From: Euryarchaeota archaeon RBG_19FT_COMBO_56_21
Lineage (GTDB): Archaea > Thermoplasmatota > Thermoplasmata > UBA10834
Reading direction: 5' to 3'
Length of the DNA: 55,833 bases
Assembly: GCA_001800815.1 (NCBI GenBank)
Contig: MGWC01000018.1
Span: 1-55,833 of the forward strand
The number at the start of each line of letters is the position of its first letter. Position 1 is the first letter of the stretch. Below the pieces are notes generated by a model. It searched no databases. It was not told where the DNA came from and was given only the letters and a program-made list of their open reading frames with translations. The translations under genes and the position numbers were made by a program. Shown here piece after piece: positions 3,463 through 35,671 of the stretch.

Positions 3463-4623
3463 TTGGAGAACACACATAGTAGAGTAGTGGCAACTGGACT
3501 GCTTGTGGTCATTCTCGCGTCGGGCTTCTTCGTGACCATGCCTGCGAGCGGTGTAACGGTTGTAGAGCCAAGTGAATGGACTATCGCTGTATACGGCGAT
3601 GCTGACAACAATCTCGAAGGCGCGTGGGACAAATACACGGACCCAGCTCTTCTGGGAATCCCGACCAACGACAAGGTCAAGGTTGTCGCAGCCTTGGACA
3701 GGTACAGCACTTCTGGAGCCGAGGTGATCGAATACGCCTATGGGACATCGGTAGTCTCGGCGACCTACGATGAGAAGAACTTCGGCGCCTGGGAGACACT
3801 AGTTTGGTTCCTGCAGGACGTCGCTGCAACGTACCCATCAGACAAGCTTGCGGTCATCCTGTGGGACCACGGCGGAGGCTGGTGGGGAGTTTGCTGGGAC
3901 GACACTGATGGCGGGTACATATCCGCGAATGAGCTCCAGAACGCAGTTACCACCGCGGGTGTATACATCGACGTTCTTGGCTTCGACGCGTGCATGATGT
4001 CCAGCGTAGAGGTTGTCTATGGAATGTACCAGACGGGCCTCGTGGGCATGATGGTCGCCTCCGAGCAGCTCGTGCCGTACAATGGCTTCCCATACGACCT
4101 CATGTTCGCGCCTCTGACGGCGAACCCGGAAGAGACGAGAGAACAGGTCGCGGATGACATGGTCGCGGGCTGGGGAATGTACTACGGCAACAAGGGCTGG
4201 GTCGATCTCAGTGCTTTGAACGTGACGATCCTCGGCGAGATCGTGACAGAGGAGTTCACGGCCTGGGTCGGTGCAATGCAGGCTAACCTGATGACGAACA
4301 GCGGCGACTACGCGTTTGCGTTCAAGAAGTCCGAGATGGTCAAGAGATGGTACATCTGTGACGTGAACATATTCGCGAACACGATGCTCGCGGACAGAGA
4401 TGTAGCGGACCCAGCATTGAGGGACGCCACCATGGCGCTCAAGGCGGCGGTCGATCTCGGCGTGAACCTGCAGAGCGGCGGAGGGAAGACCCAGCTGTCT
4501 GGAATCACTTTCTGGTTCGGGATCGGCTCCGAGTACACGAACTACGGCCCGATGTACCAGACGCTGTCGTTCGCGGGCGACACGGGATGGTACGACTTCG
4601 TGTCTGCGTTCAACGCGCTGTGA
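3463..4623 (+). CDS. Secreted clostripain-family (C11) cysteine peptidase
   Basis: Signal peptide; WTIAVYGDADNNLE, LWDHGGGW (catalytic His), GFDACMM (catalytic Cys). Confidence 0.85.
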   Translation: MENTHSRVVATGLLVVILASGFFVTMPASGVTVVEPSEWTIAVYGDADNNLEGAWDKYTDPALLGIPTNDKVKVVAALDRYSTSGAEVIEYAYGTSVVSATYDEKNFGAWETLVWFLQDVAATYPSDKLAVILWDHGGGWWGVCWDDTDGGYISANELQNAVTTAGVYIDVLGFDACMMSSVEVVYGMYQTGLVGMMVASEQLVPYNGFPYDLMFAPLTANPEETREQVADDMVAGWGMYYGNKGWVDLSALNVTILGEIVTEEFTAWVGAMQANLMTNSGDYAFAFKKSEMVKRWYICDVNIFANTMLADRDVADPALRDATMALKAAVDLGVNLQSGGGKTQLSGITFWFGIGSEYTNYGPMYQTLSFAGDTGWYDFVSAFNAL

Positions 4624-11256: not shown

Positions 11257-12258
11257 TCATCCAGATTTGAGAATCTTCCTTAATGCCTTGTTCTTCGCGG
11301 CCTCCTCACAGCTTTGCGAGTATTCTTCGTGACTGAGACCTAACATCTTCCTCTGCACATCGCCAAACTCCTCACCGGTCTCCAAGAGAATCGGGCGAAG
11401 GAAGGACCGCAGCCTCTGGTACTTGACCGCAGCCTCTTTGAAGTCCCTAGGCAGAGGGGAATCATCAACCTGAAGTAGCACGCCGCCCCCTTCAAGTTCC
11501 TCTATCACGGAACAAGGTTCTGCCTTCTTGATAGCATCGACTCCTCCCAGCCTTTCGACGTGGACTGGATTGAGGAAGTTGGTCCAGAAGACTCCTTTTG
11601 CATATTCCTTGAAGAAATCGATGATGTAGACTTTGATATCATAGTCAAAGGAAGTGAAGGGGAAGGCATCCTTGGATTGCTCGAATACGTGGTCACTTCC
11701 GACGCTGAAGGGCATGACAGGCTGTGCCCCAAGATGGACGAACGACCAGCTCAGTCTCAGGTTGACAAACTGCCTCTTCACGAGGTCTATGAGACGTTCC
11801 TGAAATCCACTTTTCTCCCCTATCCTGAATCTACTTACTGGATATGTCACTGTGATACAACCCCCGCGCCCAAAATGATCGGCAATGATGGGGTTCCCCT
11901 TCGTGCGCACAGCAGGTGCGGTGAACAAGAGTATGTTGGTCCCTTCGGCCAGCCATCGCTTCCAATCAGGTTTCTCACTGATTGAGTACAAATGAATATC
12001 GCCAAGTTTGCCCTCTTCGAACTCTCTCATCCATTTGGACAGAGTTGCGCCGTCGAACCGGGTGATTCTCTTCCAGCGATCTGTCTCCTTAAGGTGTACC
12101 TTCCCTTCGACGAACGAATCGGTTCCCTCTAAATCGATAAAGCCCTGGAGCAACTTCGCCCATTTCTCGAAGTCATCATTGAATTGAAATGCGCTATAAC
12201 TGCCCACGAAGTAGATGTTTTTGGAATTCATCTCAGATACATTCATGTTCAAACCCAT
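11257..12258 (-). CDS. Putative immunity protein for the cassette-3 toxin (DUF3396-like C-terminus)
   Basis: Overlaps the toxin stop by 10 bp; FWTNFL..VHVERLGG..I....IEELEGGGVLLQV..P resembles DUF3396-type immunity proteins; AT-richer than the host genes. Confidence 0.65.
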   Translation of the reverse strand: MGLNMNVSEMNSKNIYFVGSYSAFQFNDDFEKWAKLLQGFIDLEGTDSFVEGKVHLKETDRWKRITRFDGATLSKWMREFEEGKLGDIHLYSISEKPDWKRWLAEGTNILLFTAPAVRTKGNPIIADHFGRGGCITVTYPVSRFRIGEKSGFQERLIDLVKRQFVNLRLSWSFVHLGAQPVMPFSVGSDHVFEQSKDAFPFTSFDYDIKVYIIDFFKEYAKGVFWTNFLNPVHVERLGGVDAIKKAEPCSVIEELEGGGVLLQVDDSPLPRDFKEAAVKYQRLRSFLRPILLETGEEFGDVQRKMLGLSHEEYSQSCEEAAKNKALRKILKSG

Positions 12259-12887
12259 ACATAGCCGATAAACGAGATTCTGTCAGCGAAACGATGGAAT
12301 TCTGAATAGTGGGCCAACTGGTATTTGCTGATCTGGCCGAAGCAATGCGTGACAGGGTTCACCCCCTCATGGTAAGGCTTTATCTCGATGATATGTCCTT
12401 GCTTGAGCATATCAAGCCTTGACCCTTTGCCGAGATACTTCTCGATTTGATATCCCTCAGGGGCTAGACCATATATCAGATCGTGTGCGTACTTGCCCCC
12501 GGCAAGGGATTTTGGCGTATTGCCCCATCTCCCAGCCATGTATAGATCCTCGAAGTCGGCTCGGCTGATGGATATGACGCCATCCCATTGGCCAGTTCTA
12601 CCCGAGAACTTAGAGAAGTCCGCGAAGTCCGCTGTCCGCTCGATCGCCCTCCCACCCTCGAAGGCCTTGTCTGCCGGCCTCCAGATGTCCGCGACCTTGT
12701 CAGCGCCCTTGACGAGCCTGGCCACCCCGCCGACAGCCGGCACGAATGGCAGTATGGCGCAACCGATATCTGCTGCGAGCCAGCCCGCGTTCGCCCAGGT
12801 CGGGTGGTCCCACAGCTCCTTGATGTCCCAGATGATGCAGCCGATACAAAAGCGGTCTCTAGATACGAACCAGCCGAATCCCGTCAA
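12249..12887 (-). CDS. Orphan polymorphic toxin cassette 3: pre-toxin helices plus a PD-(D/E)XK (Tox-REase-type) nuclease tip
   Basis: Residues GCIIWD..AIERT are nearly identical to cassette 2. The tip carries E..RLD......EIKP......GQISKY. The first ~15 residues are unrelated sequence, so it is probably silent. Confidence 0.75.
   Translation of the reverse strand: MTGFGWFVSRDRFCIGCIIWDIKELWDHPTWANAGWLAADIGCAILPFVPAVGGVARLVKGADKVADIWRPADKAFEGGRAIERTADFADFSKFSGRTGQWDGVISISRADFEDLYMAGRWGNTPKSLAGGKYAHDLIYGLAPEGYQIEKYLGKGSRLDMLKQGHIIEIKPYHEGVNPVTHCFGQISKYQLAHYSEFHRFADRISFIGYVWV
12632..12843 (+). repeat. 212-bp direct repeat, copy in cassette 3 (pre-toxin segment)
   Basis: Manual alignment to 13909-14120: 186/212 identical, including an ~85-bp stretch with one mismatch. 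Confidence 0.95.
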
Positions 12888-12981
12888 AGACTGGTTCCTT
12901 GCTATTCCTATGGGATTCGCTCACAACTCAGCAGAAGATAAGGGAATCTACAATGCCCGTCGCGACCCGGCTAGAGCTACT

Positions 12982-13569
12982 CTACAAGCCGAATTCGAAG
13001 TCCTCCGAGGGCTCGAACTTGCAGTTCATGACTTTCGCTTCCCTGAACGCAGCCCTCACTCGTTCGGTCGTCAGAGCGATTCTTGGCGCATCATCTAGCG
13101 TGAATAGATCGCTGCCGTCCCAATCCGTAGGCAAGAGACCCCGCGTATTCAGGATTCTGGTTCCTTTGATGACTCCTGAGGCGTACGCCTTTGGATCGTT
13201 CAATCCGCCTCGCCCTGTGATAGCCAAACCATGATACCCGGCAATCTCCTTCCCCGCCAACACTACCTTTACATGGTACGTTGACCAGCCAGTGAGACGC
13301 TTGCTCCCGAGAATCTCGACGACTTTCTTCGAAACAACTGGATAGAGGTATCCGTTCCAAATGAAATCCGCGGCGACAGTTCCGGTGTCAACGTCCATGA
13401 CCATCGGAGCCCTTAGCTCATCCAAACGCCGCAATCCCAAATCGACCAGCCCCTCCGGCGAAAGGAGACCGTTCACCTGTCCCCAGTAGTATCTCGTGGC
13501 ATATGATGGATGAAGCGAGTAGTATCGCCGACCTTGCCTTCCGGGATCAGAAAAGGACTTTGAAACCAT
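12982..13569 (-). CDS. Putative immunity protein for the cassette-2 toxin (Imm43/DUF1629-like)
   Basis: Overlaps the toxin stop; DFIW....PVVSKKVVEIL....LTGW..Y.V and WDGSDLF...TERVR..F...K...FEP motifs. Confidence 0.7.
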   Translation of the reverse strand: MVSKSFSDPGRQGRRYYSLHPSYATRYYWGQVNGLLSPEGLVDLGLRRLDELRAPMVMDVDTGTVAADFIWNGYLYPVVSKKVVEILGSKRLTGWSTYHVKVVLAGKEIAGYHGLAITGRGGLNDPKAYASGVIKGTRILNTRGLLPTDWDGSDLFTLDDAPRIALTTERVRAAFREAKVMNCKFEPSEDFEFGL

Positions 13570-13908
13570 ATTCAGGCATGCCTCCTAGCTTCCTTGCGAA
13601 ATCGAATACGTCATCTATGGATTTCACTCCTGGGCTATGAATGAATCTCTCCCATTTCAAGTTGTAGCTGTAGCTCCAGTGTCCGTGTGCAACTGCGTCA
13701 ACCCACGAACCGTATCTCGGATTCCAGACATCAATGCCCCACTTATCCCAGAGTAGATCTCTGAACGTCACAGGGAACGCATGATGTGCCTGCATCGACT
13801 TGTCGAAGCTCAGACCTGTGATCTTCGCAAGGTTCGCTCTGAAGATTCGATAGTCGTCAGGATATCGACAGGCCTCATCCATCTGCCTGAAGAATCCGGA
13901 GATATCGT

Positions 13909-14120
13909 CTGTCCGCTCAATCGCTCTCCCACCCTCGAAGGCCTTGTCTGCCGGCCTCCAGATGTCCGCGACCTTGTCGGCGCCCTTGACGAGCCTGGCC
14001 ACCCCGCCGATAGCGGGGAGGAAAGGCACTGCAGCGCAGCCGATGTCGACAAGAAGCCAGCCCGCGTTCTCCCAGGTCGGGTGGTCCCAGAGCTCCTTGA
14101 TGTCCCATAGTATGCACCCG
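13909..14120 (+). repeat. 212-bp direct repeat, copy in cassette 2
   Basis: Partner of 12632-12843. Confidence 0.95.
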
Positions 14121-14147
14121 GCGTCGAAGAGAGTCTCGAGGATCGTC

Positions 14148-14242
14148 CCGGTCGGGTCGACATAGCTCAGCGGATTGTTGATGCAGTACGGGTACCTGTT
14201 CTGGGTCTGCGGGGCGCTCAGGGAGCCGAGCTCGGGATCCAT
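14148..14242 (+). repeat. 95-bp direct repeat, Rhs-core end, copy in cassette 2
   Basis: 86/95 identical to 16104-16198; encodes MDPELGSLSAPQTQNRYPYCINNPL(K/S)YVDPTG. Confidence 0.95.
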
Positions 14243-14595
14243 GTGCCGGACGAAGACGTAGTAAAGGCCAGGAGACGAGCTGGCCGCGCCAACGAGCATC
14301 TCGCCCGCATGCTCGAACATCTCCGTGCCAGAGGCGGCTACGGGCGTCCCGTCCCGAACTGCTTGTACTTGGCCACGGAGAATGCTGACTTCGTCGCCCC
14401 GTGCTTCTAGACCTGGCGTCGCCAGTGCGACGCACCGCAACCATCACCAGTCTGTAAGCCTTTTGGTCATGTTCGCAAGGTCCGGGTGTCTGTTCTTTGT
14501 TTGAGGTATGCTCGGGGGTCAGGACACAATCAATGTCATGGCTGTGGCGTGGAGTGGCGAAGGCATGCACAGGAATTGCTGACAAGGATCCATCA

Positions 14596-15459
14596 TCAAT
14601 CTTCCACAATCACCGGCTCGAATGTGACCCGCTTGATGCTGTGCGCCGAGAACAGCTGATACACTCTGTGACTCACGATTCTTTTCGGACGAGCATCATA
14701 CAGACCGAGCCATTCTGAGGTCAGGTTGAAATCCTTCGCATCCTTCAGAGATCCTCTCTTATACCTAATCGGAACAGCGACACCATAGACGGAATCCAAA
14801 GCCCGGTTTCGGCCGAATCTTCCGCAGGAGCACCGCTTCGGACCCGCCTCTGGCAGCTTAAGGTCCACAATCTCCGTGTTTGGAGACATCGGAGGGAGTC
14901 GGTTGGTCACAAAGAGCTGGTAGTACCCTTGAATTAGTTCCTTCCTCTTGTACCGAAGTAAGGGCCAGAACTCCACACCGGTTAGGCTAGCATCCTCAAT
15001 GAGCCTCCTCAGACGCTCAGTCACGAGGAACTCATAGGTCCAGTTCAGGGCTAGGATGTCGTTCCTGCCGAATTTTGGCTCTCTCTTCACGAGATAGGGT
15101 ATGTTCTGGACTGCACCGAATCCGCAGAGTGGACAAGCAGTGCTCAGGTCATAGGATGCTCTCTGCCAGTCTTCCATCCTCTCTTCTGGTTGCGGATATC
15201 CCCAGTAACCCGCCGGCCCCATGTAGAGGAATTCGGCGCTATTGAGCTCCTTCTCCGAGAACACCTTTTCTCTCAATTCGAAAGGTTTGATTCCCATTCT
15301 TGATAGCTCATCCTTCAGGCGAGCGTATCTCTCGTCATCAATGAACAGAAAAGCAATTCCATCAATCTTCTCCTCAATCTCAATCCCCAGATTGTCGAAA
15401 ACCGTCCGAAGCCTATCGAGGGTTTCGGGACGGAACACGAGCTTCGCTTTGATTCTCAT
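14596..15459 (-). CDS. Putative cognate immunity protein of the full-length Rhs toxin (Imm43 / double-CXXCG-like)
   Basis: Starts 10 bp after the Rhs stop; CPLCG and CSCG motifs, EFLVTERLRRLIE..LTGVEF.P, DFNLTSEWLG....IVS..VY. Confidence 0.7.
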   Translation of the reverse strand: MRIKAKLVFRPETLDRLRTVFDNLGIEIEEKIDGIAFLFIDDERYARLKDELSRMGIKPFELREKVFSEKELNSAEFLYMGPAGYWGYPQPEERMEDWQRASYDLSTACPLCGFGAVQNIPYLVKREPKFGRNDILALNWTYEFLVTERLRRLIEDASLTGVEFWPLLRYKRKELIQGYYQLFVTNRLPPMSPNTEIVDLKLPEAGPKRCSCGRFGRNRALDSVYGVAVPIRYKRGSLKDAKDFNLTSEWLGLYDARPKRIVSHRVYQLFSAHSIKRVTFEPVIVED

Positions 15460-15469
15460 AGATGACCCC

Positions 15470-18400
15470 CTACGGAAGATAACGAGCTATGGTTCTGAAC
15501 CACTCAGAACCTCCGCCGTAGACATCCATATAGATGCCCCTAAGCTGGGATTGAATGACTTCATCCGTGTAATCAGATCCATATGCCAACCGGCTCCTCA
15601 GCATCTGAGTGATCGTGTTATGGTCCCCATGCAGCAGAGCGACTGCGGGTACGTCGTTCATGTTCTTGAATCCTAGGTGCTGTGCGACTCGCCATTCCAA
15701 CAGCTTGTGTCTTTCCATTCCTCGCGGAAGCGAGACCTTCTTGAGCTCTCCGTATGGCATTATCTCGCTCCTCCCAAGATGACCCACATTGTCAGCATCG
15801 CGAACAGCCTGCCCAGTCGGCGCGCGCTTCCCGATGGTCGTCAGGTCGTCGACCCACTTCAGCCCGAAGGTCTTCCCGACCGCCTTCGCCCCGGTCTTCA
15901 CATATGAGCTGCCAACAAAGGGCAACAGCGCGCAGCCGCCGTAGAAAGCGGCCGTCTCCCAGTCGCCGTAATAGGCGGCCTTGCCGAAGAAATAGAGGTC
16001 GGAGATGACGTCTAGTACCGGAATGAAGCCCAAGTAGTACATGAACTCGTCGAAATCCAGGTAATCATAGGGAGCCGAAATCATCGGACCGGAAGCGGCG
16101 AGGCCGGTCGGGTCGACATACTTCAGAGGGTTGTTGATGCAATACGGATACCTGTTCTGAGTCTGCGGGGCGCTCAAGGACCCGAGCTCGGGATCCATCG
16201 ACACGAACCGACCGAGCTCCGGGTCCATCTGCCTCGCAAACACGTGGTACAAGCCAGTGGAGCCGTAGTCCTGCATCTCCTGGGCGAATCTGACGCTCTC
16301 AGTGCCCGCGAAGCCGATGACGGGAGCGCCGAAGGGCTTGTACATCTTGACGCTGAAGGTGAGGGCGGTGCCGTTGTACACTGCCCTGGTGCCTCCGAGG
16401 CGGTCACCGTAGTAGTAATGGACATTAGCTCCGGTGCTCCCAACGAGCTTGAGCTTCAGCTCGCCGTTCACATAGACATAGTCGGTGTACTGGCTGCCCT
16501 TCCTTTCGCAGATCGGGTCGTGGCCTAAGTACACGTAGTCGGTCGTGGCGGACCCCTCTACCATTCGCGCCCTGGCGCCGTTCGCATCGTAGTAGTACTG
16601 GCCAAGCGTAGACCAGCCACCCTTGTTCGTCCACTTGAACGCCGTGGTGAGCTGGTTCTGGGAGTCGAACTCGTACTTGTACTTCGTGTTCGACTGAGTC
16701 TTCCACCATTGGTTCCCTATCTTGTCGTATGAGTAGCTCCAGCTCGAGTCGCTCGTCAGCCTGTTGTACTGACCACTACCGTATGCGTAGGTAGTCGTGA
16801 CAGTGTTTTCTTTCTTCGTGAGCCTGTTGCCGACCTGATCGTATGTGAACGAGATTGGTACGAAAGCATCTCTATTGCCCCACGGACCTCTTGCATAAGT
16901 CATGCGGTCAAGGGCGTCGTAGCTGTAGTTCTCTTTGTAGAGTTTCAACGAGCCTCCAATGTCGACCGTGTGATTGTAATATTTCAGGTTGCCAACTTTG
17001 TCGTAGACATGAGAGAGATTCAGTTTGATCACGGAATCATGTGTCGTCTCCTTAGCCCAGAGCCAATCGCGGTTCTTGTAGGCATATTTGGTCACAAAAC
17101 CGTTCCCGCTCGTCTCCTGCTTGATGGTATCATCGAGATTGTACTCGTCATAAGTGAGCAGAGTAATGACGGTGGGGTATGTCCTTGTCACTGAGGTGAC
17201 CCTGTCCAGGGAGTCATAGTAGTAGGAGATGTTCGCACCATTTGCATAACGTATCCAAGTCGACTTCCCGTCAGGATCGTAGCCGAACTGCGATACATAG
17301 CTCGTCCCTGAGATCACCTCAGTCAGTCGCACGACTCGACCGCAGACATCGTAGCAATAGGCTATGTTGCCGAGTAAGTTCTGAGAAACGAGGAGTTGCC
17401 CCTCGTCATCGTATGCAAGCGCAATAGACTCCGACGGGGAAACGATCTTCACCATGTTTCCCACAGCATCATATGCTGACCTGGTGACATTTCCAGCTCT
17501 GTCCGTCTTCGTAATGGTCCTCCCAGCGTCATCATAGAGGGCGGACTCGAACAGGGAGTCAGGATATACGGTTTTGTTCAGTCGATTCAGTCTGTCATAG
17601 GTCATTCCTGTGACCTGTCCCTTTGCGTCTCTGACCGTAATCAGGTTGCCAGTGCTATCGTATGTCACCAACGTCTCGTAGTACTCCGTGGGTCCAGGCC
17701 CGTAGAATTCCCGTGTCGCATTCAACTGGCCTATTGCATCGAACATCTCAACAGACTTGTGACCGAGTTCATCAACACGGGTGACTGTAATGTTCAAGTC
17801 GTCATAGTAGATCGTGGCGAAACTGGCGTCAGGGTTGATGACCTTTGTTGGGCGGCCAAGCAAATCATATTCGAACGAAGTGACGTGGCCTCGCTCGTCG
17901 CGCACGTACAAGATCTGGTCCTGCCAGCTGTTTCCATACATGACATACGAGTAATTGCTTCCAAGTCCTCCCCAGCGTTCTACCTTCACTAGACGGCCAA
18001 TGGAATCGTACTTCCTGACAGTCTTGTGAGACATCTGATCGAATAGCGTTACGGTGTTCATCGCGTCATCATAGCATACGATCTGAGAGCTGCCGTCTGG
18101 TGCTGTCAGTTTCGAGATCCTGCCCAACGGGTCGTATCCGTAGAGACTTACTCTCCCCAGAGAGTCGGTCACCGACCGGAGCGTTCCATTGCTCTCCCAG
18201 AAATCATTCAGAGTCTTGGGGTTTGTCGAAACGTCATTGACACAGAAATCGTCGAAGAACATCTCAAAAGTGTCCCAGTATGCACCTTGAACCTTCACAT
18301 AGATCTCGAAAGTAATGTTCCTGCATGAGGTCCACTGAATACCGCCGAAGTCAGCATCGGGGTACATTGTGTAAGGTTTCCACACACCGAATTCGGGAGG

Positions 18401-21400
18401 TGGTACCCACAAGTTCTTCGTCGTCTGATTCATGTCAGTCCTGTTGTCCGTGTTGCCTGACCAACAGGCTAGCCAATATGTGTAGGTCGCGTAGTTGGAA
18501 CCGCTGAGGTCAAACAACCTCATCCTTAGTCCGGCTTCCATCTTGTCTCTGACGCCCCCGTTGTGCCAATAGTCAGCGAGGTTTGTCAGAACCGAAATGG
18601 CCTTTACGGGGCGAGTCATCTGGTAGTCCTTCCACAGTCGCGCTTCACCCCAGTCGTCGAACCCCCCAGAGCTTCCATGGAATGATAACCGTGCTGAAAT
18701 GTCCGGCGTGGTGAATACGGACGAAGAGAACCCCGATTCAATCGTTATCTGTGGATTGCCTTTGACGACAACGGAGTTCCATGGATCTGAGGATTTGAGT
18801 ACGTCAACCAATCCCGTGGGATACGAAGCGATTGGGTATGTGTACCCATCAACGGGCGAATAGTCAATCGCTGTTCTCCTGCCACTGGCGTCGATCTGCC
18901 ATATCTGATTTCCGAAAGCATCATGCCCGAAGTACGAGCTCACCCATCTCGAATCGAGCCTTGATTTGGAGGCTGCCAGATCTCCATCTTCGTCGAGCAG
19001 ATAGTAGGTCTCGCTAGCCACCTTCTTCGATGCGTTCTGATATGCAAACGACCCTATCAGGACGCCGTGAGCATCTGAGTTCAGCGAATTCGCATAGAAT
19101 CTCGGAGTGTAGAATGTGAACTGGTCCATGTTGAATATCTCTTCAATCCACGGGCTCTCGTATATCATTCTGCCAGATTCGAACACACGGAATCTCCCTG
19201 TACCCGGGTAGCACAGGATACCGAAATCCCGCGGGCGAAGTGGCTGAAGCGATCCCGTGACAACAGTGCCATCTTCCAACTCCAGTTGGACCGTCTGAGC
19301 GGGGGATAACCCATTGACATAGACACCTTGAGGGCCGGATGAAGTGAAATCCCATTTGGCTTCTCCGCCCCATAGTCCCCATATTATTCCGCCAACGTTG
19401 ACGTACGAGGTATCAGGACTAATCCCTAGATCCGTCGCTCTCACTGTCAGTTGGAGCCATCTGCCTGTGATCTTCGGAACATCGCCTATACTCACATTTG
19501 TGACTGGATAGGCGATTTCGGGGAAGGTGTTCCTGGGTTCGATGACGTTGTGGTAGTTGCCGTTTGACAGGAACCCGCCCCAATAAACGCGATGCCAGTT
19601 TGAATTGAAGAACATCTGGACCATGATCTCAGAGGGAAGTCTTCCCTCTGTCAGCTCGACGTATTGGATGAAGGACTCGTTGCCATCAATGCGCATAGTG
19701 CTGCTCGGCGGGCCGTAACCGTGGAAGTGCACTGCGTCACAATACGGGCTAATGTGGTACTTGGAACCCGATGCGGAACCGGGTGCGTCATCAACCCATA
19801 CGCCTTCGCCAGTATAGCCAGCTACATAGTCAATAGGATTCTTTGCATATTCGTCATCAGGCAAATGGTCCCATTGATCGCAGAACCCGAACTGAGTCTT
19901 CGGTAGGGCCGATTCGCGAACGCCCACTCTGAGAGCATAAGTATCTCCCCCCCAAATATCCATCACCGGGATCCGGAACGAGTAGTTGCCCACTTGATAC
20001 ACCTCGATGAACCCCGGAGGGAACCTCTCATCAATCGAAGGAACGATGAGAACTCCTTCCTTCGCCTGGCTAAGAATGGCCCCATCTTCGCCATGGAGCT
20101 CGAGCAGGAACCCGGAACTGTCTGAAACCGATACGGTCATGCTTGTGTATATCCTGATGTTGTCAAAGGAACTGCTGCCAAGTCCCCGGCCGTCGTCGTG
20201 TAGCGTCAGTTGGTTGATGCTGCCTTCCCCAGCCATCAGTTTGGCATCTACACACTCCCCGTCAATGTGGTAGGAAACCCAATCCCATTCCCCGAAGACA
20301 ATTGAGAGGCCAAGATCGTACCATCTATCAGGAGAAGGGGTCAAATCACCCAAGCGCTGCCATCCAGACTGACCATCGTAGCGATAGAATCCCGGCTGGT
20401 ATCCGTCCAGAGGCTGTGCAAGCAGTCTAACCAGAACTCGGGACCCTGTAGGACCGGACAACTCGACCATACCATTGAGAGTACAGTGAACGGACACTTG
20501 CACCACGAAATCATCGCTCTGACTCGGGAATTCGTGGGAAGCCCCTGCCTCGGAGCTCGAGTAAGCGAGGATGCCCAATGCCGGCGCATCAGACCTGTCT
20601 TCAGTGTAGCTGTCGAAGAAGAACAAGCCTTGCGGGATTTCGCTGACCCAACCAGAAAGGTTCCATTCATCGAAGGTACCGTAGAATATCTTCCCGGAGC
20701 TGGTTCGCTCCAGCACGCCTCCTCCTTGGAAGGAGTTGCTGGAATCAGTGTTGGAGTAGGAGAAGTATGATTCAGAGCCCAGGCCATCCCTCGTGAAGAT
20801 GACGTTTCCCCAGTCATCATAGCCAACGAACTCGGAGCTCGATATCTCTTCGGCGGCACCCCTGTAGATGTCGCGGCGTATAGGCTGACCGTAGGAATCA
20901 TACCAACTGTCGACTCTTGAGAGCTGGGTGCCATTGGCCGCCTTCTTGGTCTCTCGAGTACACTGCAACTCAGATCTGAAGGTGATTTCATCTATGGTTC
21001 GAATTGCGCCACTCTCGTCCCGTTGGGCTAGACTAGCAAAGGCCACCGCCCCGTCCACTGTGATATAATCATAATCGACCTGTCGTATCAGCTCGTTCGT
21101 CAGAACGTGTCGTAACGACTCTGATGTCACAAACCATTGGGAGAAGTCCTCGAACTCCAAAACGGAATAAGTAAGAGTTGTTTTCGACCATGACGGGAAA
21201 CCCACTCTCATGAGCAAGGGAAATCCGAAATCGCCATTTGTAAACCTGTAGTCAAACCAGGTGACGCGGTTCATAGGATCCATAATTGACTTCAGCACAT
21301 AGCTTGCACCCGAGAGCACATAGAACAACGAATGAACCTTACCATCTGGCTGGACGACCGCGGACAGCCGGGAGTTCTCGTATATCAACTGCAGAGATCT

Positions 21401-24040
21401 GTCCAATCCCACAACAGTCTGTCTTACATACTCAAGAAGCCCCGTCCCGGGATTGTACTCAAATGTCAGGTTGGTACGTCCAACAGTACCGTCTGCATTC
21501 ACGTGCATATCGGCTTGTCGAACTAGTCTGAACTCTCCGGTGAATTCATAGACTACTCCAGAAGATGTGGTAAGGAGGTACATTGTAGTGGGGCCACTCA
21601 CATTCCTTCGGAGGATGAAGTGAATCAGGTCGTGATTCTCGAACTCATTGGGATGGCCGTTGTTTCCCCACTGGATCACGAACCTAAGACCGCCAGGCAA
21701 GGAAACATAGTCCAGATTGAGCCACGGAAGATCGAGCCCCCAGGCTCCCCATCCTAGTGGGCACGCAGGGAACTTCTTTAGATCGAACGGCAATCCGTTC
21801 GGACGCATATACTTCGGCTGAATGTAGATCAATGACAAGCTGAGATCAACTCCTGCACGCCCTGGAACCGACACGAGTTCCAGCCTCTGGGTCAGTAGGC
21901 CCGACCCAGGTGAGATGAAGTTGTCAATCGATGAAAAGTAAGTCCCGTACGGAGATATGCCTTCGCGATCCCATGAACTCCTGCCAGTTCCACCGGACCC
22001 ATATGGAACCGGCTCAATGGAGTACATCACCTTCACCGTTGGTCCGATGTCCTCCTCTTCCCACAGTACCAACTGATACCCAACCGGATGAGACCATGTC
22101 ACCAAATTCGTGATATCGTTGAAAGATCCGTACCAGCTGGTGGGCTCCGACCATTCGGTGAAAGCAATCGAGGCTGGCTTTCGAGTATTGAAGATATTCC
22201 ACCCGCTATCGTAGCAGACAAAGTAGATGTTTAGCTGGGAATTCGCATCCAAAGATATCGAGGGATAGGTACAGGCCATGTCGATCTCACACGCGGTCCA
22301 AGGGGTATCCAGCGTGCGATATGCATAAGCAAGAGAGTTGTACCAGTTCCTGAACGCAATGTGAATCGTGCCGTTTGAGTCCGCAACCGCCGAGAAGGCG
22401 TCTGACTTATCTCCGGGCTCTAGTCCGCTGGCTCCTGGGGAAGCAGTCCCTTTGTCATACCAGAAGCCCCCAATTCTGCATCTTGTTCTGACCGTTGAGT
22501 CGTAGGAAGGGTTGCCCGACCACGTTGTCTCGAGAATCGCGATGTTCGCATCCGGCAGTGGAAGGAGGATGAACCAATTCCTAGTTGCGTCGACCACGAT
22601 TGGCTGTGACCAATTCTCCCACTGGAAGCTCAGCTGTTCCCCGATGATTGTCTCTTTGTAGACTGATATTATTGGATAGTCGTGGCTCGGCGAATCCAGA
22701 GTATCGCTACATGCCACCCAGCACGTCCCGTCTGTTCCGATCGTGACTGAAACCGCTGAAACGAATGCGCTAGATGTGACCAAGATCGGGCCAGTCCATG
22801 TGATGGAGTCGCCATCGATGTGGCCTATCTCAGCAAACGTGATTGGGTGAACGTAGTACCCCATAGGCGGACTGACCCAGGCGACGACAACTTTGCTCCC
22901 TAGTTGAGCGACATCAAATCCAATACCAGGATAAATCGGAGTACAGTCGAGAATCATCTCCGCATCAGAAAGACCTCCTTCGAGAGTAGCTGACCGATAA
23001 TGGATTTCCGCGCCATTGCTGTAGAACATCCAGGAATATCCATTATATCTGAAGGCCTTTCTCTGGTAACTCATCGCGGTCATTCCCTGCACCATGGAGG
23101 AATCCACTATGGTGGGGTCAATTTCCCTCCTCCCCGCTCCGAAATCTATCTTCACCGAGTAAGCAGCATTCGCATAAACAGCGGCATCCGAGACCAAGGA
23201 GAACCGCCCCTCACCAGCGTCGGACCAGTCAATATTGACCGGTGTTGATCCAGGACCACACGTCAGGTTGATCTCCAAATCGGTCACCCGAGCGATTCTC
23301 CCCGTAGAGTATTGTAGGGCGCTCACACTTTTGGAACTCTCGGAGTCGATCAGGTTGAATCCTGCTGTCGGCGCAATGTGCCAGAATACATTCCAGTCAT
23401 CAGTCGTGCCGTTGACATCGGACACTTCTGCAGTCAACTTAGGAGGCCGCGACGGAGAGAAGTCTATCAACAGTCGCATTTGGCCTTTGAGATCCAACAC
23501 ATTCCCATCTCGCTCTAGAGCGTAACTGACCACAAGCCCGCCATCAAACGCATTTTCAATGGATGCGAAGACTGGCCTAGTCGCTGCGCCAGAAACGTTT
23601 AGTGCGAAGTACGATTCAGCAATGAGCAATTCTCCTTTTGCGGAAAGCAGCGAGAACTTCGCGGGGTTTGAGACGTTGACCACATATGTTCCGAAAGAAG
23701 TCACCCAGCTGATGCTGGACTGACCCCTGATCATCCTGCATGCCAGATTCGAGTCGACTCCGGAGGGAGTTGCGAGTGGAACGCCAGTAAGGTGATTCTC
23801 AACGGATCCCCCACCCACCTCTTCAGTGATTGGAGTAAGTACAGGGGCTAGATTCACATTGGGCTCGTCCTCGGTAGGCCAATTGCCTAGCGACTCGGAA
23901 CCAGATCCTTCCTTAGCCCCCTCGGTCGTACCTACACAGACCTGGAAGATCGTAATAACCATTAAGCTAGCTGCCAGCATCGAGAAGGCGACCTTGCGCG
24001 TTCGCCCCCTCCTCACTCCTGAGAACATCTGTTCATGCAT
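15470..24040 (-). CDS. rhs: Giant exported Rhs/YD-repeat polymorphic toxin with a C-terminal HNH-like nuclease tip
   Basis: N-terminal signal or TM segment; DUF6531-like ISPGSGLL..VPGRAGVDLSLSLIY; many YD repeats (YDPLGR, YDSIGR, YDLLGR, YDRLNR, YDALDR); core end RFVSMDP...NPLKYVDPTG; pre-toxin helices; tip ERHKLLE...PAVAL..GDH. The ORF is open from 24073; ATG 24040 with an AGGGTGG SD is the likely start. Confidence 0.92.
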   Translation of the reverse strand: MHEQMFSGVRRGRTRKVAFSMLAASLMVITIFQVCVGTTEGAKEGSGSESLGNWPTEDEPNVNLAPVLTPITEEVGGGSVENHLTGVPLATPSGVDSNLACRMIRGQSSISWVTSFGTYVVNVSNPAKFSLLSAKGELLIAESYFALNVSGAATRPVFASIENAFDGGLVVSYALERDGNVLDLKGQMRLLIDFSPSRPPKLTAEVSDVNGTTDDWNVFWHIAPTAGFNLIDSESSKSVSALQYSTGRIARVTDLEINLTCGPGSTPVNIDWSDAGEGRFSLVSDAAVYANAAYSVKIDFGAGRREIDPTIVDSSMVQGMTAMSYQRKAFRYNGYSWMFYSNGAEIHYRSATLEGGLSDAEMILDCTPIYPGIGFDVAQLGSKVVVAWVSPPMGYYVHPITFAEIGHIDGDSITWTGPILVTSSAFVSAVSVTIGTDGTCWVACSDTLDSPSHDYPIISVYKETIIGEQLSFQWENWSQPIVVDATRNWFILLPLPDANIAILETTWSGNPSYDSTVRTRCRIGGFWYDKGTASPGASGLEPGDKSDAFSAVADSNGTIHIAFRNWYNSLAYAYRTLDTPWTACEIDMACTYPSISLDANSQLNIYFVCYDSGWNIFNTRKPASIAFTEWSEPTSWYGSFNDITNLVTWSHPVGYQLVLWEEEDIGPTVKVMYSIEPVPYGSGGTGRSSWDREGISPYGTYFSSIDNFISPGSGLLTQRLELVSVPGRAGVDLSLSLIYIQPKYMRPNGLPFDLKKFPACPLGWGAWGLDLPWLNLDYVSLPGGLRFVIQWGNNGHPNEFENHDLIHFILRRNVSGPTTMYLLTTSSGVVYEFTGEFRLVRQADMHVNADGTVGRTNLTFEYNPGTGLLEYVRQTVVGLDRSLQLIYENSRLSAVVQPDGKVHSLFYVLSGASYVLKSIMDPMNRVTWFDYRFTNGDFGFPLLMRVGFPSWSKTTLTYSVLEFEDFSQWFVTSESLRHVLTNELIRQVDYDYITVDGAVAFASLAQRDESGAIRTIDEITFRSELQCTRETKKAANGTQLSRVDSWYDSYGQPIRRDIYRGAAEEISSSEFVGYDDWGNVIFTRDGLGSESYFSYSNTDSSNSFQGGGVLERTSSGKIFYGTFDEWNLSGWVSEIPQGLFFFDSYTEDRSDAPALGILAYSSSEAGASHEFPSQSDDFVVQVSVHCTLNGMVELSGPTGSRVLVRLLAQPLDGYQPGFYRYDGQSGWQRLGDLTPSPDRWYDLGLSIVFGEWDWVSYHIDGECVDAKLMAGEGSINQLTLHDDGRGLGSSSFDNIRIYTSMTVSVSDSSGFLLELHGEDGAILSQAKEGVLIVPSIDERFPPGFIEVYQVGNYSFRIPVMDIWGGDTYALRVGVRESALPKTQFGFCDQWDHLPDDEYAKNPIDYVAGYTGEGVWVDDAPGSASGSKYHISPYCDAVHFHGYGPPSSTMRIDGNESFIQYVELTEGRLPSEIMVQMFFNSNWHRVYWGGFLSNGNYHNVIEPRNTFPEIAYPVTNVSIGDVPKITGRWLQLTVRATDLGISPDTSYVNVGGIIWGLWGGEAKWDFTSSGPQGVYVNGLSPAQTVQLELEDGTVVTGSLQPLRPRDFGILCYPGTGRFRVFESGRMIYESPWIEEIFNMDQFTFYTPRFYANSLNSDAHGVLIGSFAYQNASKKVASETYYLLDEDGDLAASKSRLDSRWVSSYFGHDAFGNQIWQIDASGRRTAIDYSPVDGYTYPIASYPTGLVDVLKSSDPWNSVVVKGNPQITIESGFSSSVFTTPDISARLSFHGSSGGFDDWGEARLWKDYQMTRPVKAISVLTNLADYWHNGGVRDKMEAGLRMRLFDLSGSNYATYTYWLACWSGNTDNRTDMNQTTKNLWVPPPEFGVWKPYTMYPDADFGGIQWTSCRNITFEIYVKVQGAYWDTFEMFFDDFCVNDVSTNPKTLNDFWESNGTLRSVTDSLGRVSLYGYDPLGRISKLTAPDGSSQIVCYDDAMNTVTLFDQMSHKTVRKYDSIGRLVKVERWGGLGSNYSYVMYGNSWQDQILYVRDERGHVTSFEYDLLGRPTKVINPDASFATIYYDDLNITVTRVDELGHKSVEMFDAIGQLNATREFYGPGPTEYYETLVTYDSTGNLITVRDAKGQVTGMTYDRLNRLNKTVYPDSLFESALYDDAGRTITKTDRAGNVTRSAYDAVGNMVKIVSPSESIALAYDDEGQLLVSQNLLGNIAYCYDVCGRVVRLTEVISGTSYVSQFGYDPDGKSTWIRYANGANISYYYDSLDRVTSVTRTYPTVITLLTYDEYNLDDTIKQETSGNGFVTKYAYKNRDWLWAKETTHDSVIKLNLSHVYDKVGNLKYYNHTVDIGGSLKLYKENYSYDALDRMTYARGPWGNRDAFVPISFTYDQVGNRLTKKENTVTTTYAYGSGQYNRLTSDSSWSYSYDKIGNQWWKTQSNTKYKYEFDSQNQLTTAFKWTNKGGWSTLGQYYYDANGARARMVEGSATTDYVYLGHDPICERKGSQYTDYVYVNGELKLKLVGSTGANVHYYYGDRLGGTRAVYNGTALTFSVKMYKPFGAPVIGFAGTESVRFAQEMQDYGSTGLYHVFARQMDPELGRFVSMDPELGSLSAPQTQNRYPYCINNPLKYVDPTGLAASGPMISAPYDYLDFDEFMYYLGFIPVLDVISDLYFFGKAAYYGDWETAAFYGGCALLPFVGSSYVKTGAKAVGKTFGLKWVDDLTTIGKRAPTGQAVRDADNVGHLGRSEIMPYGELKKVSLPRGMERHKLLEWRVAQHLGFKNMNDVPAVALLHGDHNTITQMLRSRLAYGSDYTDEVIQSQLRGIYMDVYGGGSEWFRTIARYLP
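16104..16198 (+). repeat. 95-bp direct repeat, Rhs-core end, copy in the full-length gene
   Basis: Partner of 14148-14242. Confidence 0.95.
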
Positions 24041-24737
24041 CACAACCACCCTTCGAATCCAATTCCTCCTCACTCACCTCATCTGAATGCATCTCTGAAG
24101 ACCCCTTCAAAGAGTATTCGACGGGGGAATTCTACCCGGAGTCGGTAGTGCTGTCTCTCGATATGAAGATTCCATTTGGGCTCGACTTGGACCCCTCAGA
24201 CAGTCTCACTCTTCATGAGACTGAGAACGCAATCTGGCCGCGGTTTGTTCATCCGAGTTCCGGTCTTTCATTGCACACAGGGACCCTATTTGTGTCCATT
24301 CTGTGCGGACACTGAGTTGCGCGACGTGCACCTTGGAGGCCTCGTTTGAACACCGTCTGGCCTCTAGGTCGACTTGGCCAATAGCACCTTCAGTCAGCCA
24401 AAGGTTGAGATAACCGGCGACGTTCCTAACGAAGTCATAGTAGCCCTAATCGAGTACCGCGATGATCGACTGGGGATCATGGAAGTCATGAACAGGCTGG
24501 ACAAATGGCGCATGAGTTCCAAGCAAGTGGCCTCCAAGATCGTCGAGTAGGGCGTTTTATGCGTGGGATCTCCGAGTCTGAAATCGCTTTTCCAGAGGAA
24601 CTGCTGCTATCTGTCCAACCAACCGTGACGCTTTTGGTCCTCTCTGGCTTGGCAATTCAGAGAAATCAAGTTATCAATTAGGTCGAATACGCTTATATTG
24701 CGATAGCAGATAGCGACTTACCGGAGTTGTATTACCG

Positions 24738-34456: not shown

Positions 34457-35671
34457 TCACGGGTTGCCCACTGCCAGCCAGTATGCCTCCAGGAAGCCAA
34501 GCCAGAACTCGTTCGGCATTACATACTCGTAGTAGTATGCCGGAACGTCGGCCTCGTGCATCGCGAATCGGACGCCTAGCCCATGAACGCTGTCAGATAG
34601 AGGCTTCAGGACCTGTAGCGCGATGACCGTGTCATCGAAATCCTCAAGAACCGCTGCGCAAGCTGCCTTGATCTCTTTCGATGAGGCGAGGGTTCTGCTG
34701 AGAGAAGCCACAAAGTCCCTCAAGTCCATCACATCTATCGCGTTCGCGCCGTAAGAGAAAGCTGCGGCGCCTCTCGCTTTCGAGATGGCGCCCGAGTACA
34801 GGTTCATGTCCTTCACCAACAGCCTGCTGAGCTCCTCAAGAGAGTCTGCTAGCTCCTTGACCATCGCCAGGTCAATAGCAGCGTGGTCGTTGATCGCCTC
34901 GCCCATATGCGGCGGTTGGCTCAGGAGGCTCTCGACCTCGTCTATGAACATGATTGCACACTCACGCGGGGTCATTGATGGATCCGCCACAAGCCTTCCA
35001 AGGGTCTGATCGTAGGGGTAGCCTCTCCACCCGGTGTAGGTCTGGCTCGCCAGCAGGTAGTCGCAATCGAGCCCAGCCATGGCGTACTCATATGCCACTT
35101 CGATCTGTCCCACGAGGCACTCGTCAGCGCCCATCACATCAACCCTGTATCCGTCCAGCGCCTGGAGGACCTCGTGGTGCGTCAGGGCGTCAGGGACTCC
35201 CTCTGCAGGACCGTTGTCGTCCCACGCTATGATGTTCGGACTACCGTGGTTCCAGAACATTAGAACCGTGTGGTCTGCCGGTGTTGCTTTGTATGTGTAC
35301 TGTACGAAGCTCCTAAGGGTGGCCGGGTCACCCATATTCACTTCTACGTCATTGAAGACGAAATCTGTCATCTCGACCATCTCGCCCTTCTTGACCATGA
35401 ATAGGTTGGCGGGGCCATACCATCTGTCGACGAACACATAGCATGCGACCTCGTCGGTCGATCCGACGGACATCAGCTCTTCGAAATCGTCTTCGACAAC
35501 CGAGACATGTTGCTGCCCAGTATAGACGTCAAGATTGTTGTCCGCCACCAGATAGATCAGATATCTCCACTGCGTGTGCGCCGGAGGCGCCGCATTCACG
35601 CTCGGAGCGATGAACGCCCCTGCAAGGACTGCGATCACCAACAGACCCACAATAAGACCCTTCGGTATCAT
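34457..35671 (-). CDS. Secreted clostripain-family (C11) cysteine peptidase, second paralogue
   Basis: Signal peptide ending VNA; WRYLIYLVADNNLD, VNMGDPATL..F, FWNHGS, GADECLVG..EVAYE. Confidence 0.85.
   Translation of the reverse strand: MIPKGLIVGLLVIAVLAGAFIAPSVNAAPPAHTQWRYLIYLVADNNLDVYTGQQHVSVVEDDFEELMSVGSTDEVACYVFVDRWYGPANLFMVKKGEMVEMTDFVFNDVEVNMGDPATLRSFVQYTYKATPADHTVLMFWNHGSPNIIAWDDNGPAEGVPDALTHHEVLQALDGYRVDVMGADECLVGQIEVAYEYAMAGLDCDYLLASQTYTGWRGYPYDQTLGRLVADPSMTPRECAIMFIDEVESLLSQPPHMGEAINDHAAIDLAMVKELADSLEELSRLLVKDMNLYSGAISKARGAAAFSYGANAIDVMDLRDFVASLSRTLASSKEIKAACAAVLEDFDDTVIALQVLKPLSDSVHGLGVRFAMHEADVPAYYYEYVMPNEFWLGFLEAYWLAVGNP

Follow-up and report, generated by a model that had tools for sequence, protein, structure and literature searches.

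The window analysed here, a stretch of 55,833 nucleotides (nt) of contig MGWC01000018.1 from Euryarchaeota archaeon RBG_19FT_COMBO_56_21, carries on its minus strand, between positions 11257 and 24073, a gene array made up of a main Rhs gene, immunity gene 1, cassette 2, immunity gene 2, cassette 3 and immunity gene 3. It represents the 3' part of a polymorphic-toxin locus of the Rhs type from an archaeon, in which a full-length Rhs gene with tip 1 and immunity 1 is followed by two silent orphan cassettes, each of which combines a toxin tip with an immunity gene. On balance, we favor the view that the array of orphan cassettes arose by serial replacement of tips at two junctions, one at the end of the Rhs core (repeat D2) and the other in a pre-toxin domain termed PT-B (repeat D1), and that it has a latent, as yet unproven capacity for reloading. 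The features of the locus are as follows.

15470..24073, minus strand: main Rhs/YD-repeat polymorphic toxin gene (open reading frame with Pfam and NCBIfam matches)
16104..16198, minus strand: D2 copy of the main gene (repeat search and blastn)
15470..16103, minus strand: tip 1, consisting of the PT-A pre-toxin domain and toxin 1 (3' part of the main gene)
14596..15459, minus strand: immunity gene 1, 287 amino acids (aa), directly downstream of tip 1
13547..14440, minus strand: orphan cassette 2, open reading frame of 297 aa (core remnant, PT-B and toxin 2)
14148..14242, minus strand: D2 copy of cassette 2 (86/95 identical to the main-gene copy)
13891..14120, minus strand: D1 copy of cassette 2, within PT-B (repeat search and blastn)
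12982..13569, minus strand: immunity gene 2, 195 aa (23-nt overlap with the end of cassette 2)
12249..12887, minus strand: orphan cassette 3, 212 aa (PT-B and toxin 3, no core end)
12614..12843, minus strand: D1 copy of cassette 3 (3' end, 12624-12669, strain-variable)
11257..12258, minus strand: immunity gene 3, 333 aa, TsiV family (Pfam match)

Two repeat pairs and the probable replacement of tips

According to the original prediction, a 95-bp block is common to the main gene and cassette 2 only, a 212-bp block is common to cassettes 2 and 3 only, and all copies are direct and in the same codon phase. A repeat search and blastn against the whole window bear this out, with exactly two direct copies of each block. 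The D2 copies (14148-14242 and 16104-16198) are identical in 86/95 positions, their starts are 1,956 nt (3 x 652) apart, and they are read in phase 0 in both the main open reading frame (ORF) and the cassette 2 ORF. The main-gene copy encodes MDPELGSLSAPQTQNRYPYCINNPLKYVDPTG, and its codons are the final 31 of the Rhs core, which closes with DPxG(L). The longest perfect run in D2 is 17 nt, and the differences between the copies affect seven codons synonymously and one non-synonymously. The D1 copies (12632-12843 and 13909-14120, 186/212 identical) are spaced by 1,277 nt, and can be extended without gaps to 230 nt (12614-12843 and 13891-14120, 196/230 identical). The spacing is not a multiple of three, yet this is harmless, because D1 is read in phase 2 in the ORFs of both cassettes. 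Simulated crossovers lead to uninterrupted products, of 2,856 aa for main::tip 2 and of 2,863 aa for main::PT-B::tip 3. The geometry of the simulated products also agrees with the earlier statement that each deletion would remove the preceding immunity gene.

The similarity of the D2 copies could reflect the mere conservation of a core-end motif. This explanation was rejected, since eight relatives reach no more than 48-75% DNA identity in the equivalent block, compared to 90% in the window. Where a main gene and an orphan, or two orphans, are found at one locus elsewhere, their equivalents of D2 are 57% and 48% identical. Directly upstream of D2, the agreement between cassette 2 and the main gene drops to 17/41 aa. 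In this part, the cassette 2 remnant shares 25-26/45 aa with members of another lineage (P0006, P0008, P0013), and the main gene is closest to P0027 (26/41 aa). In view of the 90% identity within the block and the collapse of similarity upstream of it, D2 is best described as a mosaic patch common to two different core ends. The part of the cassette 2 core remnant that lies upstream of D2 derives from another Rhs lineage.

The identity along D1 is unevenly distributed, with 87/110 matches in the 5' half and 99/102 matches in the 3' half, and perfect runs of 31 and 53 nt. Judged by this gradient, D1 looks recently converted. Over 10.9 kb (23569-12670), a metagenomic contig, L001, shows zero differences from the window. 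It then departs from it at the 3' edge of D1, where four single-nucleotide polymorphisms (SNPs) are crowded into 24 nt and are joined by a 9-nt indel. At 4/4 of these SNPs, cassette 3 of the window agrees with cassette 2. The patch that distinguishes L001 from the window is consistent with gene conversion over a short tract from one PT-B copy to the other, in either direction. At this place, the window and most contigs have a 9-nt tandem duplication in cassette 3 (12624-12641, minus strand), with GCGGACTTC present twice and translated as ADFADF. In L001, the GCGGACTTC unit is single-copy and adjoins the four-SNP cluster (12646-12669), and cassette 3 comprises 209 aa. A conserved motif at the junctions between cassettes, which could have served as a site for site-specific recombination, was also considered and rejected, as the three spacers downstream of the immunity genes align no better than shuffled sequences. 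We interpret the two blocks as footprints of successive tip replacements, not as conserved motifs. The repeats themselves are still recombination substrates, and short conversion-like patches, mosaic boundaries and strain-level breakpoints (see below) are in evidence at the locus.

A plausible history of the locus would start from an ancestral main gene that ended in PT-B and toxin 3, much like the present-day protein P0145. This end would then have been displaced by a module of PT-B, toxin 2 and immunity 2, with cassette 3 left behind without a core end. In a later event, a module of tip 1 and immunity 1 would have displaced tip 2, and cassette 2 would have been left with about 75 aa of core remnant. 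In the reverse direction, RadA-type homologous recombination between the direct repeats could excise 1,956 nt, 1,277 nt or both, and thereby load tip 2 or tip 3 in frame onto the Rhs body, a process for which a Salmonella Rhs orphan provides experimental proof. In the present locus, such reloading would be rare and could take place in either order. Only the 1,956-nt deletion would attach anything to the Rhs body, and the 1,277-nt deletion might come before or after it. The latter is the likelier event, because D1 offers a perfect run of 53 nt, compared to 17 nt in D2. The original prediction had tip 3 loaded only after tip 2. This order is not enforced, and the route is not hierarchical in that sense, because the D1 deletion can precede or follow the D2 deletion. 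The original prediction had itself mentioned the alternative that cassette 3 first replaces tip 2 inside the silent cassette, and the D1 deletion, which is possible first, has the better substrate. A plain deletion would also deprive the cell of its immunity to the toxin of its siblings. The everyday value of the cassettes more likely lies in the immunity genes that are retained with them.

Toxin and immunity modules and their relatives

The main ORF encodes 2,867 aa, or 2,856 aa if the start is placed at position 24040, as is done by gene callers. From the N-terminus, the protein comprises a hydrophobic segment and about 2,000 aa in which no Pfam domain is recognized, continues with the RHS shell and the core end, and finishes with tip 1. 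The shell is recognized by Pfam as RHS_repeat, in four stretches (E=1.2e-30), and by NCBIfam as YD_repeat_2x (66.6 bits, cutoff 15.8), and TEN_YD-shell is found among the precomputed matches. Rhs_assc_core (TIGR03696) is covered from profile position 1 to 76 of 76 (55 bits, cutoff 32.5). The core ends with NPLKYVDPTGL, in line with the PxxxxDPxGL rule, directly before the variable tip. PAAR, VgrG-linked, LXG (type VII secretion system, T7SS) and TcB-like delivery domains were not detected, RHS_repeat being the only Pfam domain in the 2,867-aa protein. The full-length Rhs protein P0145 (3,071 aa) shares 26% identity with the main protein over the N-terminal approximately 1,200 aa, and 36% in the shell. 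As P0145 is homologous to the main gene product in both the N-terminus and the shell, the giant architecture is a family trait.

Toxin 1 has no Pfam match (E up to 10) and no sequence match in the PDB. The domain is also present in P0030, which adjoins an immunity 1 homologue, and is seen as an orphan at locus L037, where an immunity 1 homologue with 72.6% identity follows the toxin 1 homologue. Immunity 1 itself has a weak match to Imm11 (E=0.03, below cutoff).

Cassette 2 has the layout of an rhs-CT/rhsI orphan, being 5'-truncated and in direct orientation, with core-end homology kept and immunity gene 2 downstream. Its ORF spans 297 aa from a TTG codon, and gene callers predict a product of 257 aa. 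It starts with the core remnant (14148-14440, about 75 aa), which ends in DPTG and is followed by PT-B (about 13891-14147) and toxin 2 (13547-13890). The match of the remnant to Rhs_assc_core is partial (profile positions 27-75 of 76) and, at 26.9 bits, does not reach the cutoff. A stretch of 30 nt that encodes RFVSMDPELG, and that is kept in the main gene and in all family members, is missing from cassette 2 immediately upstream of D2 (14243 versus 16199-16228). This loss is a deletion between two direct repeats coding for MDPELG, and leaves the core end with a single DPxLG motif instead of two. Toxin 2 carries the signature AHHxFP...WGIDV..PRYGSWV..AHxHW, which is conserved in its homologues P0002 and P0003. 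The motif looks like that of an HNH/AHH-type nuclease, but this is an inference only. Neither Pfam (E up to 10) nor the sequences in the PDB provide a match to toxin 2. An AlphaFold model of cassette 2 was too poor for use (pLDDT 52). At locus L038, the start of an immunity 2 homologue (40% identity over 50 aa before the contig end) comes after a toxin 2 homologue.

Cassette 3 begins about nine codons past the point where DPTG would stand. An alignment of its 142-nt 5' flank with the core ends does not score above shuffled controls, and Rhs_assc_core has no match in the cassette, in keeping with the earlier statement that the core-end block is missing here. The only homology is to cassette 2, via PT-B, so that cassette 3 is an exception to the rule by which orphans carry core sequence homologous to the main gene. 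Toxin 3 contains the motif LD...IIEIKP (D...EIK). Residues 100-212 of cassette 3, which represent this toxin, are predicted by AlphaFold with pLDDT above 90 to adopt an alpha/beta fold. Toxin 3 has no Pfam match (E up to 10) and no match to a PDB sequence, and a Foldseek search of the PDB returned nothing significant, with PD-(D/E)xK nucleases among the weak matches (E >= 0.1). Taking together the motif, the model, the weak Foldseek matches and the TsiV-type partner, toxin 3 most likely acts as a nuclease with a restriction-endonuclease fold, probably of the PD-(D/E)xK type. The TsiV assignment of immunity 3 is based on a Pfam match of 38.1 bits (cutoff 25). P0145 ends in PT-B and toxin 3 (37% identity over 205 aa), and an immunity 3 homologue (38% identity) comes after it at locus L039. 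Judged by L037, L038 and L039, toxin/immunity pairs 1 to 3 appear to be kept together in relatives, and the toxicity of the former and neutralisation by the latter are predictions.

PT-B is a helical pre-toxin domain common to cassettes 2 and 3 (13891-14147 and 12614-12852). It has no match in Pfam, including PT-TG, PT-HINT and PT-VENN, even at E up to 10, and none was seen among 37 PT-B proteins. An exhaustive search of a library of 1.84 billion proteins identified 129 representatives with PT-B (among proteins P0145-P0281). In nine of them, which have at least 1,000 aa, some 200 aa separate the domain from the C-terminus. Another group, of about 20 short proteins, begins with PT-B, without a core end, in the manner of cassette 3. 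In view of these placements, PT-B is a general module boundary, and orphans that retain only the pre-toxin domain are a recurrent class. The following combinations of pre-toxin and toxin domains were found.

PT-A and toxin 1: main gene of the window
PT-B and toxin 1: P0030
PT-B and toxin 2: cassette 2, P0002
PT-A-like domain and toxin 2: P0003
PT-B and toxin 3: cassette 3, P0145
PT-B and Tox-REase-9, Tox-REase-5, GIY-YIG, Fic or DUF2380: other library matches

The original prediction had called for a search for related genomes in which tip 2 or tip 3 is fused to a full-length Rhs protein. For tip 3, P0145, which comes from a distant relative, is such a case. Toxin 2 was encountered as orphans or fragments only. 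Relatives also have the same layout of a main gene and orphans with direct repeats. In other related archaea, orphan cassettes with small downstream genes are present without a full-length Rhs gene nearby (L037:10001-12645, L042:10001-12905 and L043:7688-10888). The L037 orphan lies in a complete genome of 2.55 Mb, and L043 has two orphans with 272 nt in common at 97% identity. The existence of such orphan-only islands implies that cassettes are kept without serving an adjacent main gene. Just upstream of the orphan at L042, in a related archaeal metagenome-assembled genome (MAG), we noticed a cluster of ThiF (E1-like), UQ_con (E2-like) and JAB genes (L042:6454-8699), which looks like a ubiquitin-like conjugation system.

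The contig that contains the window is archaeal, as indicated by the marker families that it encodes, namely archaeal RecJ, archaeal GlmU and GlmM, Kae1 and fibrillarin. For the Rhs core, the closest relatives with a name come from MAGs labelled Thermoplasmata, Bathyarchaeota/Bathyarchaeia and Theionarchaea. A scan of the GTDB species genomes with the core end returned only bacterial Rhs matches with about 25-30% identity, and the species is not represented among them. The GC content is 0.58-0.67 in the repeat blocks and the core remnant, and about 0.49-0.50 in toxin 2, toxin 3 and immunity 3, a contrast that is consistent with the import of the latter three as modules. Elsewhere in the window, a second giant ORF (44192-54160, plus strand, 3,322 aa) encodes five fn3 domains, bacterial TSP3 repeats, FG-GAP and NosD/beta-helix segments, and probably gives rise to a very large surface protein or adhesin. 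In relatives, too, NosD/beta-helix proteins are encoded next to Rhs or orphan loci (L040, L041, L042). The contig further carries two clostripain-like (Peptidase_C11) genes, at 3463-4623 (plus strand) and 34457-35671 (minus strand). The former was taken from the gene tables of matching contigs, and the NCBIfam clostripain match of the latter is weak.

Switched forms, strain variants and competing explanations

Contigs nearly identical to the window are present in about six ENA or Logan assemblies, and no switched arrangement was found in these approximately six metagenome assemblies that carry the genes. Tip 1 is present on 4/4 contigs with a complete main protein, which is identical in all of them. 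The contigs that were found via immunity 1, 2 or 3 and that reach far enough are all collinear with the window. The main-plus-orphan locus of a relative, which was recovered from two samples (L040 and L041), is likewise collinear. Among JGI metagenome contigs, there were zero matches to a cassette-2-specific 27-mer, which catches parental and switched forms alike, and zero matches to the 5' sequence of L003 (see below). Of the predicted switching of tips by deletions, the in-frame geometry and the recombinogenic blocks have thus held up. Active, ordered switching has not, and a switched contig is missing from every assembly that carries the genes.

The metagenomic data do contain strain variants of other kinds. 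In L003 (sample ERZ27254736), tip 1, immunity 1, cassette 2 and immunity 2 are identical to the window from position 16425 downward. The preceding part (L003:1-200, equivalent to window 16426-16620) is homologous but diverged core, with the frame broken by an 8-nt indel and two stops. As the upstream core is frame-disrupted, tip 1 appears to be an orphan in the L003 strain. Moreover, contig ends from four independent assemblies cluster at 12957-12999, i.e. at the stop of immunity gene 2 and in the spacer that follows (loci L003, L004, L008, L011 and L014). At this place, the sequence of the window is no longer matched by the last part of L008 and the first part of L011, and in L011 the end of another gene (...AAFECGL) comes before it, which suggests that there are unsampled cassette variants between immunity 2 and cassette 3. 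Together, L003 and the clustered ends suggest strain-level structural variation at cassette borders, in a direction that they do not specify, and with the proviso that short contig ends may be chimeric.

The original prediction envisaged an ordered magazine, in which the 1,956-nt deletion exchanges tip 1 for tip 2 and is a prerequisite for the loading of tip 3 by the 1,277-nt deletion, with a change of toxin and immunity identity. This scenario could draw on the direct, in-phase repeats with intact fusion ORFs, on the orphan toxins and immunity genes, which are intact as well, on the recombination footprints at D1 and D2, on the functional-looking tip 3 module of a full-length Rhs protein elsewhere (P0145), and on the experimental precedent in Salmonella (PMC3967940). 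We nevertheless regard it as unlikely. All complete main genes have tip 1, the far-reaching contigs found with immunity 2 or 3 are collinear, and there is no switched contig among them. D2 offers only 95 nt at 90.5% identity, with perfect runs of at most 17 nt, compared to 522 bp at 95% identity in Salmonella (PMC3967940). Recombination at D1, the better substrate, can come first, so that the order is not forced. A simple deletion would cost immunity to siblings, a problem for which the Salmonella work invoked a prior duplication, and relatives possess orphan-only islands that have no main Rhs gene. A more far-reaching proposal, in which the nested homology is a genuine multi-round switching device, with the PT-B DNA as a second dedicated recombination handle, three toxins fired in turn by one Rhs body, and PT-B-only cassettes in metagenomes as the ammunition, appears quite improbable.

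At the other extreme, the cassettes could be pure relics that are never reloaded, with immunity 2 and 3 as guards against toxins 2 and 3 of neighbours and with repeats that have no present role. An immunity bank of this type, an idea that has been discussed before (PMC3150448, PMC10539506), would agree with the orphan-only islands in related archaeal genomes, with the core remnant of cassette 2, which is damaged by the 30-nt deletion and below the Rhs_assc_core cutoff, and with the lack of switched variants in the assemblies. We consider it improbable, because both orphan toxins are still open and have conserved motifs, which would be needless for immunity alone, and because the 97% identity in the 3' half of D1 and the strain-variable, conversion-like patch argue that the repeats are not inert. 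It is very unlikely that cassettes 2 and 3 are expressed on their own from internal starts (ATG 14320 and TTG 12887), as modules akin to toxin-antitoxin systems. Gene callers do predict proteins of 257 aa and 212 or 209 aa, the overlap of each toxin ORF with the start of its immunity gene suggests coupled expression, and a Salmonella Rhs orphan provides a precedent (PMC7043789). However, the start codons are at arbitrary positions in a decayed core remnant or in spacer, and the products have no export signal.

Some points also weigh against serial replacement of tips with a latent capacity for reloading. The order and direction of the historical events are a reconstruction. The intact ORFs of the orphan toxins fit recent displacement, but equally selection for usability. 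The patch that distinguishes L001 from the window may stem from an unsampled donor or from an assembly error, rather than from cassette 2, and the 9-nt indel next to the SNPs falls outside the homology with cassette 2. L003 is a metagenomic contig of only 3.6 kb, the first approximately 200 nt of which could be a chimeric join. Finally, assemblies report majority haplotypes only, so that rare switched cells are possible.

Comparison with known systems

The underlying concept is already established (PMC3482391, PMC3150448, PMC3967940), with reloading proposed for orphans of contact-dependent growth inhibition (CDI) systems (PMC3150448) and demonstrated for a Salmonella Rhs orphan (PMC3967940). 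The closest counterpart is the Rhs locus of Salmonella Typhimurium LT2, where Koskiniemi et al. (2014) demonstrated the reloading of an orphan via 522 bp at 95% identity (PMC3967940). Evidence for the recombinants came from PCR, Southern blot and phenotype, and recombination followed on a duplication, which the authors proposed because a plain deletion leads to the loss of immunity to siblings (PMC3967940). Both loci consist of a full-length Rhs gene with its immunity gene, followed by a direct, start-less orphan tip with its own. In Salmonella, recombination in the shared core brings the orphan toxin into frame and takes out the main tip along with the immunity gene of the latter (PMC3967940), and the geometry in the window would allow the same. 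The differences are the much smaller homology (95 nt at 90.5%), the number of orphans, which is two here and one in Salmonella, with the second orphan tied to the first only by the pre-toxin domain, and the status of the recombinants, which were demonstrated there and have not been observed here. Moreover, the host in the present case is an archaeon, and the context of a type VI secretion system (T6SS) or PAAR protein is not recognisable.

In CDI systems, Poole et al. (2011) described arrays of orphan cdiA-CT/cdiI modules, and proposed that they are reloaded by recombination at the short conserved VENN junction (PMC3150448). In Y. pestis Microtus, a natural deletion has loaded an orphan, and the authors warned of the concomitant loss of immunity (PMC3150448). 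As in the window, the toxin/immunity modules of the CDI arrays are located downstream of the main gene, the upstream homology of the orphans is variable or nil, and other genomes contain full-length genes to which orphan modules are fused (PMC3150448). In contrast, the CDI toxins are carried by the CdiA filament instead of an Rhs shell, the junction is VENN instead of the DPxG core end or PT-B, and the hosts are bacteria.

Zhang, Aravind and colleagues (2012) have described the replacement of tips by toxin-immunity cassettes, and included RHS toxins with cassettes from Methanosarcina acetivorans (PMC3482391). Their model also places pre-toxin domains between the delivery part and the toxin (PMC3482391). 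The present locus differs in that PT-B matches no Pfam model and in the host lineage.

Contact-dependent or secreted toxin systems of archaea have hardly been studied by experiment, and the locus is a clean example that recurs in several metagenomes. It indicates that the tip-replacement logic of enterobacterial Rhs and CDI systems operates in archaea as well. At present, the locus adds a helpful annotation and a hypothesis that can be tested, rather than a new mechanism. If reloading could be shown, orphan switching as known from Salmonella would be extended to archaea and to the case of two cassettes. What is specific to the locus is the archaeal host, the very short core-end block, and a second orphan that is linked only via an unannotated pre-toxin domain. 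According to the model of C-terminal displacement that Jackson et al. are said to have put forward in 2009 for enterobacterial Rhs proteins, incoming tips displace older ones at the core end, and the older ones are left downstream together with a piece of the core. This model predicts the decreasing homology that is seen from the main gene to cassette 3, with the difference that one of the displacements in the archaeal locus seems to have used the pre-toxin junction.

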